In this document: piece after piece, positions 15,628 to 22,812 of the stretch
How positions within the stretch are numbered: the stretch's first letter is position 1
How the letters are laid out: every line of letters starts with the position of its first letter
Source: a virus
Virus record (IMG/VR): IMGVR_UViG_3300032214_001034
Location: 1-64,000 of that record
DNA: 64,000 bases
Strand: one strand, 5' to 3'
Position numbers and translations under genes: made by a program
Notes under the pieces: model-generated
What the model was told of the DNA's origin: nothing
The model's database searches: none
What the model saw: the letters and a program-made list of their open reading frames with translations, nothing else

Positions 15628-16479
15628 ATGCCTTCAACAAGAAGCATTGCTGATATAAAATCAGCACTATTAAATCCAGCAACTACTTCTCACTTTGAGG
15701 TTAAAATTCCTTTTCCCACAGGAGCTCGCGCAGACTCTCAGTTTTGGAAGGATAATGGTGTTAAACTTGATCAAGATAAAATGCAATTGATGTGTCATGA
15801 AGCAACTTTACCTGGATCTAATCTTGCTACTTTAGAACTAACAAATGATCATACTGGTGTAACGGAAAGACACGCATACCGAAGGGTTTATGATGACAGA
15901 ATTGATTTAAGTTTTTATGTGGATGCAGAAAATTATTTACCTATTAGATTTTTTGAAACTTGGATAAAATATACTGCGTTTGAAAGCAAAGCAACTGATT
16001 CTGCTATAGGTGCAAGCCTTAGAAGTGATAATTATTTTTATCGTTTCAGATATAGGGATGAATATGTTGCAAAACAAGGTTTGGAAGTAACTAAATTTGA
16101 AAGAAGTAGTTACGCAGGAGCAAAGGGAAGACGTGCAACAGCATTAACATATAAGTTTGTTAATGCTTTTCCGATTAGCTTGAGTTCTATGCCAGTTTCA
16201 TATGATAGTTCTAGTCTTTTAAAGTGTACTGTTAGTATGAGTTATATTAGATATTACATTGATGAAACAGTTGATGAAAGTTCATCTAGTTCTTCTACAC
16301 CACAACAACAAGCACAATTCAATTCAAGCAATTTGAGTATTCCTGGTCTTGAAGGTGTAAATGCTTTCACAACTCCAGTAAATGGATTTAATCTTGGTGG
16401 TATTTCTCAATCATCTGCTAATGCTTCTGGAAATACAGTTTCTGGATTTACTGTTGGAGCGAACTCAAATATTGGATAA
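15628..16479 (+). CDS. Tail tube / baseplate-tube initiator family protein (gp19/gp54-like)
   Basis: LMCHEATLPG, FYVD...RFFETW and FVNAFPISLSSMPVSY..LLKCTVSMSY. Confidence 0.7.
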   Translation: MPSTRSIADIKSALLNPATTSHFEVKIPFPTGARADSQFWKDNGVKLDQDKMQLMCHEATLPGSNLATLELTNDHTGVTERHAYRRVYDDRIDLSFYVDAENYLPIRFFETWIKYTAFESKATDSAIGASLRSDNYFYRFRYRDEYVAKQGLEVTKFERSSYAGAKGRRATALTYKFVNAFPISLSSMPVSYDSSSLLKCTVSMSYIRYYIDETVDESSSSSSTPQQQAQFNSSNLSIPGLEGVNAFTTPVNGFNLGGISQSSANASGNTVSGFTVGANSNIG

Positions 16480-16512: not shown

Positions 16513-17232
16513 ATGCCTTTACCTAAGATTGCTACACCAACTTATGAACTTGAATTGCCATCAACAGGAGAGACAATTCAATATAGACCGTTCCTAGTCA
16601 AGGAAGAAAAATTGCTTGTAATTGCTCTAGAGAGTGAAGATAATAAGCAAATTACAACAGCAATCAAAACTGTAATCAAGAACTGTATTCTTACAAAGAA
16701 TATTAAAGTAGAATCACTTCCTACCTTTGATATTGAATATTTGTTTCTTAATATTCGCGGTAAGTCTGTTGGGGAAGAACTTGATGTAAATATTATCTGT
16801 CCAGATGACGGTGAAACGGAAGTTCCTGTCAAGATTAATCTTGATGATATTAAAGTTCAAAAGAATGATGAGCATTCGAATAAGATTAAACTTGATAATT
16901 CAATTATGATGGAAATGAAATATCCATCTTTGGACCAATTTATTAAGAATAATTTTGATTTTGATAATAAGAATGCAATGGATCAATCGTTTGAACTGAT
17001 TGGTTCGTGTATTGATAAAATCTACACAGAAGATGAAGTCTGGGCAACAGCAGATGTTTCTAAAAAAGAACTAAATGAGTTCTTGGAGTCTATGAACTCT
17101 TCTCAGTTTAAAGATATTGAGAAGTTCTTTGAAACGATGCCTAAACTTTCTCATACTGTTAAAGTTACTAATCCCAAAACAAAAGTTGAAAGTGAAGTTG
17201 TTCTTGAGGGCTTAGCGTCTTTTTTCGCGTAG
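16513..17232 (+). CDS. gp26: Baseplate hub assembly protein gp26
   Basis: MPLPKI.TPTYEL, YRPFLVKEEKLL, DIEYLFLNIRGKSVGE and LEGLASFF. Confidence 0.88.
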   Translation: MPLPKIATPTYELELPSTGETIQYRPFLVKEEKLLVIALESEDNKQITTAIKTVIKNCILTKNIKVESLPTFDIEYLFLNIRGKSVGEELDVNIICPDDGETEVPVKINLDDIKVQKNDEHSNKIKLDNSIMMEMKYPSLDQFIKNNFDFDNKNAMDQSFELIGSCIDKIYTEDEVWATADVSKKELNEFLESMNSSQFKDIEKFFETMPKLSHTVKVTNPKTKVESEVVLEGLASFFA

Positions 17233-17253
17233 CAATGGTCCATATGGACCTTG
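17206..17253 (+). other. Putative programmed -1 ribosomal frameshift cassette
   Basis: SD-like GAGGG (17206-17210), slippery T TTT TTC (17220-17226), 6 nt spacer and hairpin (17233-17253). The -1 frame is open into gp51. Confidence 0.6.
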
Positions 17254-17423
17254 AGAATTATTTCCGTCTCAACTTTTCCTTAATGCAGTACCATAAATAT
17301 TCATTAACGGAGATTGAAAATTGGATGCCTTGGGAAAGAGACATCTATGTTGGATTATTGCAACAGCATCTTGAAGAAGAGCAATTAAAACAACAGCAGC
17401 AGATGAGTAATGCCCACTTCTAA
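17235..17423 (+). CDS. gp51: Baseplate hub assembly chaperone gp51-like (possibly the frameshift extension of gp26)
   Basis: NFSLMQYHKYSLTEIENWMPWERDIY; no obvious SD of its own. Confidence 0.75.
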   Translation: MVHMDLENYFRLNFSLMQYHKYSLTEIENWMPWERDIYVGLLQQHLEEEQLKQQQQMSNAHF

Positions 17424-19770
17424 GGAACTAAAAGATTTAGATTCACAACTTAAGAAGACAGTCATCTCTGCTGAAAGTTTCAAGAGAGGGAGTTCTCTTG
17501 ACTCATCAAAAAGTATTGCCAATATTCACAAAACAATAGGAAATCTTGCTGGACATACAAGAAAACTTGCTGTTCGTTTTATTGATCTAGAAAAGGTTGT
17601 TGAAAATAATTCAAAAAAGATTACAAGTCTCAAAAATCTTTCTCAATCCCAAGGTAAAAGAATAAGTGGTGAAAATATTGGTGCGAAATTACCGGGTGGC
17701 ACTACCTCAAATGTAGAAGATAGTATCTCTGCGATTGCAAAGTCTGTAAACTCCATTGCAGAGATATTGGTAGGAAGAAAGAAACTTACAGATGATACTG
17801 CTGCTTATGAAAGAAGAAAGTCGGAACAGGAAAAGAGAGCACTTGCTGAAAGTAAGTTAGAAACTGTATTCAGCGGCATTGCTAAAACTGCAGAAAAAAT
17901 TATAGCACCTGTTAAAAGTATCCTTGATAGGATATTAGAATTTATTGGAACTGTTATTCTAGGAAGGATAGTTTTTAAAATTATTGAGTGGTTTGGAAAG
18001 AAAGAAAATCAAGAAAAATTACAATCACTTATTCGTTTCTTTAAGGATCATTGGCCAAAACTTCTTGCTTTATACCTTGTATTTGGTAATTCATTTGGAC
18101 GATTTGTTTTTAGTTTAACAAAGACTTTAATTGGTGGTGCAGTTAAACTTGGTATTGCGATTGCTAAACTATTAGCAGCGAAAAAAGTAGCGGGTGCTAA
18201 AGGTGTAGCAAAGTTTCTTGGTAAGCGTGGTGGTCTTATTGGTGCTGGACTAGCAACCGCTGTTACGGTTGGTGGTGCATTAGCAGCAACTAATGCTCTT
18301 AAAGGTGGAGAAGAGAAACCAAAAACTCAAAAGTTTTCTGGTGGTGGATTAGCAATCCCAAAATTTAGTGGTGGAGGATTTAACTTCAAAGGCATGATGG
18401 GTGGCGCTGGAATGGGCGCTATGTTTGGACCTCTTGGTATGCTTCTTGGTGGTGCATTTGGTTCTGGAAAACCACAACAAATGATGAGTGGATTTGTAAG
18501 TGGGGAGAAGGGTGTAGATAAAGTCCCTGCGATGCTTAGTGATGGTGAGTTTGTTATGTCTCGCGGTGCTGTCGCAAAGTATGGTGTTGGTACTTTGGAA
18601 GCAATGAACGCTGCTGGTGGTGGAACAAACAAACCAAAAATTATGAGCGGAACTGCTTTTGCTCAGGGTGGCGGTTATATTACAACCAAGGAAGAAAAGA
18701 AGGAGAAGGTAAAAGATCCTATACTAGAGAAAAGACAGAAAGAACTTGACAAATTATCAAATGCAGCATCGTTTGGTAATTACAGTGATGTTGAAATGGA
18801 CGCTAATAAATCCGTCTTGATTGATAAAAGATTAAAGAGAATAGAATCTCAAATGCAAGTTCAAAGAGCACTTGCATCAGGAAAAGGAATTTCTGTTAAA
18901 GGAGCAACTTTTGGTACTGATATTGGTACTGGATATGGTGCAAAGTATAAAGGAAGAGATGCTATAAAAGTAAAACTCCCTCCAGGTGGAAGTTATGAAC
19001 CACAAATAACACTTGCAGGCAAAATATATTATGCTATGAAGCAGGGAGATAATATAGTATACACTGCTCAAGACTCTAGAGATGTTGGTGGTGGAGGAAT
19101 ATTCAAACCAGGTGGGATGTTTGGTGGACCAAGAATGTCCGCTAGACAAAACTACGCTGCATCAAAAGGAAAATATTATGATCCTCGTGACCGAAAAACG
19201 TATGCAAGTAAAAATGATGCTGACTCTGCTTACAAATCCAGGATGACTAATTTAGCATCTCAACAAAGACTTATTAAGTTGAGTGGTCAGGGTGGAACAG
19301 GAGGTAGGAGTGGTATTAGATATGATACTGAAATGGAAGCGTTTCAAAACGAACAGGAAAAGAGAGGTGGTATTATTGGTCAGTTAAGTAGATGGAGTCA
19401 AAGAGCATTTGGTGGAAATGAAGCAAGAGAGAGATTAGATGCGGAACATAAAGCATCTCAGGCAAGAATAAAACAAAAAGGTGCAGAATCCATTGGTAGA
19501 TACTATTCATCCTCTGATGGAAAGTATTATAAAGATTATGCTGCTGCAAAGAAAGCAAGAGATTTGAGACTTGCTCAACAACAAAAGAGATCGGCACCAG
19601 GAATAACTCCTTCACCAAAACCACAGCAACAGACATATTCTCAGAGAATGAAAGCACGTCAAGATGCTAGAAGAGGTGGAGCACCAGCAGCACCTAAAAC
19701 TCCTAACTTTGGTGCAACTAATCCTGCAGCAAGCAGTGCAAAGTCTAAAACTCTTGGAGTTAAGGGGTAA
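17410..19770 (+). CDS. Tape-measure-like structural protein
   Basis: Long helical N-terminus, hydrophobic Gly/Ala stretch and GVDKVPAMLSDGEFVM motif; follows gp26/gp51. Confidence 0.6.
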   Translation: MPTSKELKDLDSQLKKTVISAESFKRGSSLDSSKSIANIHKTIGNLAGHTRKLAVRFIDLEKVVENNSKKITSLKNLSQSQGKRISGENIGAKLPGGTTSNVEDSISAIAKSVNSIAEILVGRKKLTDDTAAYERRKSEQEKRALAESKLETVFSGIAKTAEKIIAPVKSILDRILEFIGTVILGRIVFKIIEWFGKKENQEKLQSLIRFFKDHWPKLLALYLVFGNSFGRFVFSLTKTLIGGAVKLGIAIAKLLAAKKVAGAKGVAKFLGKRGGLIGAGLATAVTVGGALAATNALKGGEEKPKTQKFSGGGLAIPKFSGGGFNFKGMMGGAGMGAMFGPLGMLLGGAFGSGKPQQMMSGFVSGEKGVDKVPAMLSDGEFVMSRGAVAKYGVGTLEAMNAAGGGTNKPKIMSGTAFAQGGGYITTKEEKKEKVKDPILEKRQKELDKLSNAASFGNYSDVEMDANKSVLIDKRLKRIESQMQVQRALASGKGISVKGATFGTDIGTGYGAKYKGRDAIKVKLPPGGSYEPQITLAGKIYYAMKQGDNIVYTAQDSRDVGGGGIFKPGGMFGGPRMSARQNYAASKGKYYDPRDRKTYASKNDADSAYKSRMTNLASQQRLIKLSGQGGTGGRSGIRYDTEMEAFQNEQEKRGGIIGQLSRWSQRAFGGNEARERLDAEHKASQARIKQKGAESIGRYYSSSDGKYYKDYAAAKKARDLRLAQQQKRSAPGITPSPKPQQQTYSQRMKARQDARRGGAPAAPKTPNFGATNPAASSAKSKTLGVKG

Positions 19771-19776
19771 TAACAA

Positions 19777-22700
19777 ATGGCAATCACCTCAGAAAAACTC
19801 CTAAACAGATCATCAGAACTTCATAGACGTTATGGTGGAAGACTTGCTATGCAGAAAGCACTGCAAGAAAAAATGGTAAGTGGTGCTCCTTCTAATGTTG
19901 TTTTAACAAAAAAATCAATAAAAGATATTGAAGGTATTAAAGTCAATATTATTAAGATTGAAAGTATTTTAAAAGGGACTCTTGCTGTTGAGAAAAAATC
20001 ACTTGATGAAAAGAAAAGACAGGAGAGTGGAAAGAGAAGAGAAAAGCAAGAAGAAAAGTTGGAAACAAAACCACAAGCAGAAAAGGGTAAAATAAAAACT
20101 CCTGAAGTACCAAGAATGGGATTTCTTGATTGGGTAAAGAACTTTATTGGAAATGTTATTCTTGGATACTTTGCTGTAAGGATGCTTGATTATCTACCAA
20201 AGCTAATTCCTATTGTAAAGTTTCTTGGATCTGCCACAGATTTTGTAATCAACACTGGTGGAAAACTTTTAGATGGTTTGATTACTTTTGTTGACTGGGG
20301 TTACAAGGCGATTGATGCAACCAATGGATTTATTAAGAAGATTGGTGGAGCAGGTGCTGCAGATAATTTCGGAAAGTTTTTGGGTCTAATTGATAATGCT
20401 TTATTCTTAACAACTACTATCGCTGGTGCGATGGCAGTTGAGGCTTTGACCTCTGATAGTGGCGGTCGCGGAGATGTTGTATCAGATCAAATAACAAAAA
20501 GAGTTTTTCAGAAGGGAGCACAGCAGGCGGCAACAAGTGCAGCTGGTCAAGCTGGTGGTGCTGCTCAGGCTGGTGGATTGGGTGCTGGTGCAGTAGCAGG
20601 TATTGTTGCTGGAGCTGGACTTCTTGCATCTGCTTTAGGTGAGGGTGCATTTCAACTTCGTAAGGTTGCATCAGATCCTATAAAAAGGAAAGAAGATGAA
20701 TTTAGTAAACTGAGTTGGTTTGACCCAAGAAAGTACTTTGTCGGTGCTCAACTTGGTGGTATGAAAATGCTTCTTGGACCTTTAGCGGCCATTGGAGTAA
20801 TGCTTGATATTGTTGGTGCTCCTTTTAGATATGCTATTGAACTTCTTCGTTATCCATTCCTAAGTGAAGAAGATAAGAAAAAACAAGCATACAATCTTGC
20901 AAAATTTGATGCAAGAATTCGTGAAGATTTTAGAAAAGGATTGAATATGCTTACCCTTGGATTTGCTTTCAAGGAGAAGGGTTCTTTTGGAAACATTTAT
21001 GGAAACAAAGGTGCTCAAAAAGAAATGATGGGTAAGATGGCTGGTGGTGGAATTACAAGAGGTGGTAAAGCGCAAACTGGAGCAAGAAGAACTATAGGTG
21101 GAGATAAGAAGAAAGGAAAGTATAAGAGAGCTCTTGCAAGAAAACCATCAAAAACTCAATTCAAAGGAGATCCTAAAAATCCTTTAGTGAAAACAGGGCA
21201 AGAATTAGATAAAACAAAATACTTTGGTCCAGTCCTTGCAGTTTCAACTAAACTTGAAGCAAAGGAAGAACCAACTCAAAAGGATTATGATAATGTTGGA
21301 TTGGGTCTAAACTTATTGATTGCAAAAGGTCTTGAAGAAGGTCAACTGAAAGGTGGATTAGTTGCTGCTTTTGCTGAAGGTGGTATGGTCAACGATGAAT
21401 TTTTAGAAGCAGCAGAGAAAGGAGTTGATGTTAGTAGCTGGATTAGTAAAACATTTAGAACTGAATTTGAAACTAATGCACAAAAAACTTTAAGATTGAT
21501 AAGAGAAAGAAAAGAAACAAAGGAAGGTGCAGCAGGAGTTCCTGGATCTGAAACACCTGGTTCTCCCGATATGATTAATATTCAGGGAGGAGACGTTGAC
21601 TTCTGGACATTAGTTGCTGTTGCTTCTAGGGAAGATGGAGAACCACAAGCATGGGCAGATGTTGCACAATCAATTTATAATAGACTTGCATCTGGAGCTT
21701 ATACTGGAAAGACTATTAAGGATTTAATTCTTGGTCAAATGCAATATGAACCCACTTGGAAGTTTCCTAAACCGGGTGTAACCGGAAAACCAAACCAAGA
21801 GTGGTATGCAATCAAGGATGCTGCTAGTGCAGGAATAGCAGCAGGTCAATCTGAAGGTGCTATGAAAAAAGTTGCTGCTGCAATTTTGGACCCAACATTG
21901 CAAAAGAATGCACGAGAATTTATTCAAGGCAGAACAGATTTTAGAGGATATAGTGTGAGTGGAGGAGTTCAAAGAAAACCTGGTGACAATTACTATGGAT
22001 GGTATAACAATTACCGTGCAAATAAAGTAGGTTCTGTTCCAAACTTTGGCGCAACTGCAACTTCTACTGGATCTGGTCCTGGTGGAACATTTGTTGGTGG
22101 AGGAACTGGGTCTGGTTATGGAACTGGTGGTGTGAAAATTGCTGGTGATTTGGGTGATTATATGAAAGCAAATAGAGGTAAGATTGGTGTTACTGGTGAA
22201 ATTCACCAACACCCAAGACATCCTGGACAATCTAGACGTAATTATTTTTCATATCACAATCAAAATAGGGCACTTGACATTGGTGGATGGGGTCCAGCAC
22301 ACCCAAGTTCTGGTGGAAGAGATGAACAAGCACCAGTAATCAGAGCATTGTTGGAATGGAATAAGAAAAATGGATATCAACCTGTTGAGATTATTCATGG
22401 ATCTCCTGCATTTAAGGGACTTGGAAAGTACGAATCTTCACCTAATGCACTTCACTCCAATCACGTTCACGTTGCATATGCTTTGGGTGGAAGAGTAAGA
22501 AAACCTACTTATGCTATTGTTGGAGACAAGGGTCCTGAGTTTATATTTGACGCAGACACCACTGCAGGATTAGATAGACTTGCTCCTGGTATTTTAGAAA
22601 AACTTAACGTAGCAAAAACAAAACCACAACTTGCAAGTGTTCTTCAATCCTATGCTACATATGAGCAGCCATATGGTGAAACGCAAGTTATTGAAGTTCC

Positions 22701-22812
22701 TGTAGAAGTTCCTGTTTCTGTGGGTGGGGGTTCTTATGGATCTTCTGGTTCTTCCATAGTGTTTGCTGGTAAGAGAGATGATCCATTTGATACTCTGTAT
22801 CAAGGTGGGTAA
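19777..22812 (+). CDS. Tape-measure-like protein with cell-wall hydrolase domains
   Basis: Helical N-terminus; SleB/Hydrolase_2-like ASRE...VAQSIYNR...QYEP; His motifs SYH..RALDI and HSNHVHVA; GGRV..PT...GDKGPEF. Confidence 0.65.
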   Translation: MAITSEKLLNRSSELHRRYGGRLAMQKALQEKMVSGAPSNVVLTKKSIKDIEGIKVNIIKIESILKGTLAVEKKSLDEKKRQESGKRREKQEEKLETKPQAEKGKIKTPEVPRMGFLDWVKNFIGNVILGYFAVRMLDYLPKLIPIVKFLGSATDFVINTGGKLLDGLITFVDWGYKAIDATNGFIKKIGGAGAADNFGKFLGLIDNALFLTTTIAGAMAVEALTSDSGGRGDVVSDQITKRVFQKGAQQAATSAAGQAGGAAQAGGLGAGAVAGIVAGAGLLASALGEGAFQLRKVASDPIKRKEDEFSKLSWFDPRKYFVGAQLGGMKMLLGPLAAIGVMLDIVGAPFRYAIELLRYPFLSEEDKKKQAYNLAKFDARIREDFRKGLNMLTLGFAFKEKGSFGNIYGNKGAQKEMMGKMAGGGITRGGKAQTGARRTIGGDKKKGKYKRALARKPSKTQFKGDPKNPLVKTGQELDKTKYFGPVLAVSTKLEAKEEPTQKDYDNVGLGLNLLIAKGLEEGQLKGGLVAAFAEGGMVNDEFLEAAEKGVDVSSWISKTFRTEFETNAQKTLRLIRERKETKEGAAGVPGSETPGSPDMINIQGGDVDFWTLVAVASREDGEPQAWADVAQSIYNRLASGAYTGKTIKDLILGQMQYEPTWKFPKPGVTGKPNQEWYAIKDAASAGIAAGQSEGAMKKVAAAILDPTLQKNAREFIQGRTDFRGYSVSGGVQRKPGDNYYGWYNNYRANKVGSVPNFGATATSTGSGPGGTFVGGGTGSGYGTGGVKIAGDLGDYMKANRGKIGVTGEIHQHPRHPGQSRRNYFSYHNQNRALDIGGWGPAHPSSGGRDEQAPVIRALLEWNKKNGYQPVEIIHGSPAFKGLGKYESSPNALHSNHVHVAYALGGRVRKPTYAIVGDKGPEFIFDADTTAGLDRLAPGILEKLNVAKTKPQLASVLQSYATYEQPYGETQVIEVPVEVPVSVGGGSYGSSGSSIVFAGKRDDPFDTLYQGG

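Follow-up and report, generated by a model that had tools for sequence, protein, structure and literature searches.

A predicted programmed −1 ribosomal frameshift just before the gp26 stop codon would join gp26 to the gp51 reading frame in T4-like phages

The 64,000-nucleotide (nt) stretch analyzed here, positions 1 to 64,000 of IMG/VR record IMGVR_UViG_3300032214_001034 (the window), lies on a 74.5-kb fragment from an uncultured marine T4-like cyanomyovirus whose closest named relative is Synechococcus phage SynMITS9220M01 (80.6% nucleotide identity over the gp26/gp51 region). We studied the junction between two adjacent plus-strand genes, at which a −1 ribosomal frameshift is predicted. The first, gp26 (16513..17232), encodes in the zero frame a short product of 239 amino acids (aa), a baseplate hub assembly chaperone that belongs to the T4_baseplate family by its match to PF12322 (E = 3.5e-78; 262.7 bits against a curated cut-off of 24.5) and also matches phrog_150 (E = 2.6e-83); it is the one PF12322 copy in the 74-kb record. 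The second is a 62-codon open reading frame (ORF; 17235..17423) that is usually annotated as gp51, the baseplate hub assembly catalyst. It matches phrog_634 (E = 2.9e-27) as well as profile positions 241–281 of the 282 of phrog_150. Precomputed tables list PF28602, known here by its identifier alone, for the gp51 domain of homologs (P0001–P0035).

The gp26 gene ends with TCT TTT TTC GCG TAG, its stop codon occupying 17230–17232. Within this end lies a slippery heptamer of the X XXY YYZ type, T_TTT_TTC (17220..17226, plus strand), whose zero-frame codons are 17221–17223 and 17224–17226; it therefore stands in the phase with gp26 that a programmed −1 ribosomal frameshift site requires. In the −1 frame the sequence reads TTT TTT CGC GTA GCA ATG (FFRVAM...) and is free of stops until 17423, giving a plus-strand extension (17226..17423) of 65 codons from the re-read base 17226, followed by TAA at 17421–17423. 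Joined to this extension, 16513–17226 would encode a long form, gp26-51, of 303 aa (238 + 65), and the predicted tryptic junction peptide of this fusion, which ends in FFR, is VESEVVLEGLASFFR. An earlier note on this DNA, made from the sequence alone, had described the in-phase heptamer, the stop-free passage into the 62-codon ORF and a fusion of about 303 aa, and the sequence bears out all three. It had further stated that the gp51 ORF has no Shine-Dalgarno (SD) sequence of its own; indeed, no SD-like motif was found 5–12 nt upstream of the ATG at 17235. This ATG and a second one at 17244 could start free peptides of 62 and 59 aa, respectively.

Conservation of the junction was assessed in two sets: 78 usable IMG/VR loci of close relatives (gp26 identity 74–92%) and 166 distinct junctions assembled from IMG/VR relatives, named phages and two further scans; the Aeh1-type and T4-type IMG/VR scans comprised 7 loci each. 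In all 78 close relatives TTTTTTC is retained, the downstream ORF stays in the −1 phase and the bridge is open. Among the distinct junctions, 163 of 166 carried T_TTT_TTY in phase and, after it, an open −1 extension (159 T_TTT_TTC and 4 T_TTT_TTT), and the −1 frame remained open for 50–69 codons at each of these heptamer-bearing sites. The alignment of cyanomyovirus junctions that the earlier note had proposed as a check thus came out in its favor, and the pattern extends to distant T4-like phages, namely Aeromonas phages Aeh1 and Assk, the KVP40-like Vibrio phage phi-ST2, Delftia phage PhiW-14, Stenotrophomonas phage Marzo, Caulobacter phage Cr30 and Pseudomonas phage pf16, whose gp26 proteins share 23–37% identity with that of the window.

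Other arrangements were also observed. On a 236-kb IMG/VR contig (L183, positions 2150–2300), tctttttggttagg replaces tcttttttcggttagg and is two bases shorter, which places gp26 in frame with the gp51 domain (...LEGLTSFWLGMAHVDL...); the long form may be hard-wired in this genome, or the contig may be misassembled. In the Vibrio phages K474 (L092) and Kuja (L097, Ackermannviridae), CTT TTT (Leu-Phe) stands in place of the T-run, a −1 gp51-like ORF lies downstream and there is one PF12322 copy. These phages may slip on the U_UUU tetramer only or initiate the downstream ORF independently (K474 has TAATGATGG).

The heptamer is preserved beyond the needs of the encoded protein. Among the 124 gp26 codon columns that were conserved and degenerate in 78 sequences, three were invariant, and two of these are the TTT and TTC of the heptamer, while the remaining Phe columns mix TTT and TTC. 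The codon preceding the heptamer is AGT, TCT, GAT, AAT, GCT or GGT, so that the residue varies and the third base is always T (the NNT rule). The absence of the T-run from all ten two-gene phages, described below, completes this picture. The only other conserved gp26 codon column without synonymous change is the TTT of a second Phe-Phe pair (TTC TTT, residues 205–206, KFFETMP, window 17125–17130), which is invariant in 77 sequences.

The −1 frame itself also carries signs of constraint. Its first codon encodes Arg (CGC, CGG, CGA or CGT) in 148 of the 163 heptamer-bearing junctions, and the zero-frame residue at this place varies among A, G, S, V, E and D; on these codon comparisons, the −1 frame is under selection from the predicted slip point onward, and in the window it stays open for 65 codons, into a conserved coding extension. 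No ATG occurs for at least 16 codons in 31 heptamer-bearing junctions, and in about 24 there is no ATG, GTG or TTG for at least 14. The peptide ahead of the first possible start is nonetheless conserved, for example RIALLHTNLxxYYEGNFxLIHHHKW, with a ratio of nonsynonymous to synonymous substitution rates (dN/dS) of ~0.32, for which no control-frame value is available because the other frame contains stops. A conserved peptide without a start codon could be translated only from gp26. The extension ORF is unannotated in the start-less phages Aeh1, Assk, S-CAM8, S-WAM2 and S-PRM1 and is annotated as a stub of 30–31 aa in P-SSM7 and P-HM2. The C-terminal tail of the extension varies in length among relatives (59–69 codons), and one RNA-library contig of a relative has a 9-nt insertion (CAGCAACAC) in its Gln-rich part, at window position 17390.

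These observations bear on the alternative that no frameshift occurs and that gp51 is a separate protein of 62 or 59 aa, made by termination-reinitiation at ATG 17235 or 17244, with the T-run kept for some other reason. Such initiation has start codons at its disposal, at the third −1 codon in 94 of 166 junctions and at the sixth in 28 of 166, and public records annotate two coding sequences. It does not account for the conserved peptide upstream of the first start in the 31 ATG-less junctions, for the Arg conserved in the −1 frame ahead of the gp26 stop, or for the invariant T_TTT_TTC and the NNT rule. Independent starts were the outcome that the earlier note had set against its own proposal, and many relatives lack a start codon for the gp51-like ORF. 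We consider exclusive separate initiation very unlikely, and free gp51 initiation may coexist with slipping in the clade of the window.

The arrangement in T4 provides a further line of evidence. T4 gp26 (208 aa) and gp51 (249 aa) are described as hub assembly chaperones, gp51 being essential, of unknown function and not found in the particle (Leiman et al. 2010, PMC3004832). Genes 26 and 51 of T4, like those of Enterobacter phage AS6, lie on opposite strands and are divergently transcribed, and therefore no fusion is possible. Residues 1–201 of T4 gp51 match PF12322 (E = 3.9e-52), which makes gp51 a paralog of gp26, and its last 59 residues match phrog_634 and positions 224–281 of phrog_150, regions shared with the 62-aa ORF of the window; by phrog_634, the −1 extension carries the C-terminal domain of gp51. 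The predicted fusions align colinearly with T4 gp51 across the junction (T4 gp51 segment ...SFFRVAMVHMDLENYFRLNF...), and T4 gp26 ends with ...GLKEFFELL in that alignment. Judged by these matches, T4 gp51 is a gp26-like domain plus the −1 extension within one ORF. BLASTP searches of the 62-aa ORF and gp26 against T4 gp51 gave nothing useful; it was the profile searches that detected the relation. T4 shares the PF12322 family, a homolog of the extension in the last ~59 residues of gp51 and an equivalent short/long pair, but has two diverged paralogs, no T-run at the FF motif and no frameshift, whereas the window has one gene with a predicted slip, whose two products would be identical over their N-terminal 238 residues.

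The distribution of gene copies and heptamers is complementary. A single PF12322 copy was found in eight complete genomes with a short −1-frame ORF directly after gp26, six of which have the canonical heptamer (S-SSM7, P-SSM7, Aeh1, phi-ST2, Cr30 and pf16) and two CTT TTT (K474 and Kuja); T4 and AS6 have two copies. Ten Straboviridae with the two-gene layout encode the corresponding gp26 C-terminal motif as TTC TTT, TTC TTC, TTT GTT, TTT TTA, TTC CTT or TTT ATT, or lack it, and an in-phase T-run was present there in none of the ten; these phages serve as a natural control. The earlier note had also named FF encoded without a T-run as a finding that would speak against it; this was seen only where no −1 ORF follows, in 10/10 two-gene phages. 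Separate initiation of gp51 leaves unexplained both the loss of the T-run in these phages and the fusion of the domain to a gp26 paralog in T4.

The same 303-aa protein would also be produced by normal translation if RNA polymerase added one U within the T-run, and one extra T yields exactly the FFR junction. In keeping with such transcriptional slippage, metagenomes contain 35 singleton proteins, the longest of 357 aa, most of which match PF12322 and the gp51-domain family, and those read at the junction (~301–357 aa) carry FFR; however, homopolymer sequencing errors explain them equally well, and they were not counted as evidence. One of these proteins (P0005, 357 aa) runs ~55 residues beyond the usual end of the extension. 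A T-run of six is shorter than the tracts typical of bacterial transcriptional slippage. Polymerase slippage would need neither the in-phase register, which is nevertheless kept in 163/166 junctions, nor the C at heptamer position 7, nor a downstream hairpin. Contigs from three RNA libraries of two studies span the site with no inserted base, which counts weakly, as rare variants are lost from contigs, which may also derive from DNA and thus do not prove transcription. We therefore regard slippage during transcription as quite improbable.

Two candidate stimulators flank the heptamer. Upstream, an SD-like GAGGG (17207..17211, plus strand) forms a conserved motif and a possible 5′ stimulator; the earlier note had placed it 9 nt from the heptamer, and the motif is there, with a spacing of 8 nt. 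In 156 of 163 junctions, a motif of the AGGG, GAGG or AGGA type ends 8–9 nt upstream of the heptamer, and GGG is used after GAA in 23 of 32 cases and after GAG in 14 of 120, which preserves AGGG (Fisher test, 6e-11, not corrected for relatedness). Downstream, beginning 6 nt after the heptamer, lies a stem-loop of 3 bp, a bulge, 5 bp and an ATAT loop (17233..17253, plus strand), a possible 3′ stimulator that is modest in strength and lies where the earlier note had placed it. Across 75 relatives, 73.7% of the cells of this stem (alignment columns 28–36 and 41–48) are paired, and its covariation (0.280 vs 0.192 in shuffles) was reached by 0 of 500 shuffles. Compensatory pairs include 33–44 (GC 28, AU 20, GU 14) and 35–42 (CG 38, UA 13, UG 11). 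Over the 163 junctions, the mean folding z of the 45 nt downstream of the heptamer was −2.08, and strong hairpins were predicted in S-PRM1, S-SSM7, P-HM2 and Cr30. In E. coli, UUY codons and homogeneous pyrimidine heptamers are shift-prone (PMC4066793). The stem-loop and the upstream AGGG probably raise the rate of slipping.

Based on these comparisons, we judge it highly probable that gp26 ends in a programmed −1 ribosomal frameshift site and yields proteins of 239 and 303 aa. The majority of ribosomes would decode TTT TTC GCG and terminate at TAG (17230–17232), releasing the 239-aa short chaperone. Some ribosomes, with tRNA-Phe occupying the P site as well as the A site on U_UUU_UUC, would slip back by one base and read CGC GTA GCA ATG on to 17423, producing the 303-aa protein composed of gp26 and the helical ‘gp51’ domain. 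Short and long products in a fixed ratio would constitute an assembly-chaperone pair for the baseplate hub and the tape measure. Such a pair would play the part of G/GT in lambda and E/E+E′ in P2, a role that T4 would fill with its diverged paralogs 26 (short) and 51 (long).

The fold of the long form was examined with an AlphaFold2 (AF2) model of P0009, a metagenomic protein of 302 aa that carries the fusion junction predicted here, built from a 103-row alignment. The model had a mean predicted local distance difference test score (pLDDT) of 91.7 and a predicted template modeling score (pTM) of 0.80, and its extension is helical. Among 48,161 representative chains, the best structural matches were 2OB9 (HK97 gp13, Z 7.1), 3FGX (Rbstp2171, Z 7.0) and 3KLU (YqbN, Z 6.7), with 5IR0 (PLE1 TAC) at Z 4.6 and chains other than tail assembly chaperones (TACs) at Z 4.0 or lower on that region. 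All four are described as TACs (PMC9603447, PMC12987554), so that solved TACs take ranks 1–3; all align to model residues 1–96, with 84–86 residues aligned, which is most of each chain. They differ from the model in their sequences (5–12% identity), and gp26 has ~150 further residues. In this model-based comparison the N-terminal domain has the TAC fold, and chance is a poor explanation for the top ranks being filled by TACs, of which few have been solved. A Foldseek search of the PDB returned no row that reached significance, with 2OB9 and 3KLU among the top rows, and a sequence search of solved structures with gp26 returned no matches. The position of the gene pair was compared with that of known TAC pairs as well: upstream lies a gp54-type tube-like gene and downstream a 786-aa protein with weak signals of a tape measure protein (TMP). 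A G/GT-like chaperone role for gp26 and gp26-51 is supported by the fold and by T4 genetics. By analogy, both forms would bind the tape measure and the long form the tube protein as well, and neither would be found in virions, just as T4 gp51 is missing from the particle (PMC3004832).

According to reviews, G-T frameshifting is a conserved feature of long-tailed phages ‘except T4’ (PMC5009743). A known parallel to the slip site is E/E+E′ of P2, which slips on TTTTTTG (Christie et al. 2002, as described in PMC3091744): it too is a tail gene of a myovirus in which a T-run close to the 3′ end of the short ORF is the place of a −1 slip, and its two products have a common N-terminus, and its long form adds 51 residues where gp26-51 adds ~65. 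However, P2 E is a classical small TAC of 91 aa, whereas gp26 has 239 aa and is TAC-like in its first ~90 residues only; no sequence similarity to gp26 was detected, and P2 is without a downstream hairpin. Lambda G/GT (Levin 1993; Xu 2004, 2013, 2014, as reviewed in PMC5009743) resembles the predicted system in its low-level −1 slip near the 3′ end, the fixed ratio of short to long product, the expectation that neither form is in the virion, and the location of the gene before a large candidate tape measure. It differs in its slippery sequence and family (gp26 matches no Pfam family but PF12322), in that the upstream neighbor here is a gp54-like tube initiator and not the major tube protein, and in that the T4 homologs are assigned to hub assembly and not to tube polymerization.

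The idea put forward in the earlier note, that the short gp51 is a GT-type extension of gp26, gained support from the conservation of the junction, the start-less relatives, the colinearity with T4 gp51 and the TAC-like N-terminal domain. We found no report of a gp26-gp51 slip in the literature searched, a search that was not exhaustive, and no annotation of it in the public records examined. The pattern of heptamers and gene copies suggests that frameshifting is used by most of the T4 superfamily and that the two-gene arrangement of T4 is derived. With somewhat more confidence than doubt, we propose that the long-missing G/GT-type tail assembly chaperones of the T4 superfamily are gp26 and gp26-51, that the ancestral state was one gene with a −1 slip, and that the Tevenvirinae-type phages replaced it by duplication into a short 26 and a hard-wired long 51. 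If this is true, the ‘except T4’ clause drops from the frameshift rule, and gp26 and gp51 acquire a testable role. It would also correct a systematic annotation error, the extension being missing, truncated or labeled as a separate ‘hub assembly catalyst’ in the records examined, and would offer a natural experiment in which recoding was replaced by gene duplication.

Several observations qualify or weigh against the frameshift and the chaperone pair. The window contains 29 copies of TTTTTTC against 30.9 expected, which is the chance level. The window hairpin (−9.7 kcal/mol, z −1.45) is not significant alone, 18 of 200 shuffles folding as well; RNAalifold retained four of its pairs with a weak consensus energy, and folding of the downstream 45 nt gave no clear structure in P-SSM7, Assk, Aeh1 and pf16. 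The SD-like element overlaps conserved Glu-Gly codons and is not fully separable from them. Favoring separate initiation of gp51, ATG codons follow the TAG in the window at distances of 2 and 11 nt. A Z of about 7 can be reached by unrelated folds and is ambiguous alone. Curated family searches did not place gp26 in a TAC family: Pfam gave PF12322 only, and NCBIfam a chance-level pyrophosphatase match far below its cut-off. The downstream candidate tape measure, finally, is weakly supported by its sequence matches. The copy number of the heptamer and the unremarkable hairpin would suit a coincidence, in which a common heptamer stands before a small overlapping ORF with no slip and no importance. 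Such a coincidence, however, is contradicted by the retention of sequence, phase and open frame down to 23% gp26 identity, by the suppression of synonymous change and by the complementary pattern in two-gene phages, and we judge it extremely improbable. As far as the alignments indicate, what lies beyond chance is the position, phase and conservation of the heptamer, not its mere presence.

The surrounding genes were identified as follows. The minus strand carries gp48 (tube cap), gp2 and gp4; the plus-strand genes that follow are, in order, a tail-tube-like gene, gp26, the gp51 ORF, genes for proteins of 786 and 1011 aa, a ‘tail protein’ and gp5. The tail-tube-like gene directly upstream of gp26 (15628..16479, plus strand) matches PF23849 Phage_TTP_2 (E = 2.9e-17) and the ‘tail tube’ family phrog_45 (E = 3.3e-36). 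The equivalent place in Aeh1, Assk and phi-ST2 is occupied by an annotated gp54, the baseplate tail tube initiator, and the product of 15628..16479 is probably a gp54 homolog, not the major tube protein.

The earlier note had seen two tape-measure-like genes immediately after gp51; two large ORFs do follow, and their matches to tape measures are weak. The first (17410..19770, plus strand) encodes the 786-aa candidate tape measure, which matches the TMP family phrog_23013 (E = 8.5e-5 over 56 residues) and has Atlas leads to T4_Tape_measure and other TMP families (0.79–0.81). BLASTP with T4 gp29 gave no match to it, and no similarity between the two was detectable. Its ATG at 17410 overlaps the end of the −1 extension by 14 nt (17410–17423), and its translation may be coupled to ribosomes finishing the −1 frame. 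The second (19777..22812, plus strand) encodes a 1011-aa protein, a second large tail or hub protein that matches phrog_35997 and, below the cut-off, PF07486 (E = 0.0087). The signal for a cell-wall hydrolase is thus weak; the protein also contains a hydrophobic stretch rich in Gly and Ala, and its C-terminal part resembles a peptidase. In relatives, the first gene downstream of gp26/gp51 is annotated as endolysin or peptidase M15, and its counterpart in the window may be the 1011-aa or the 786-aa protein.

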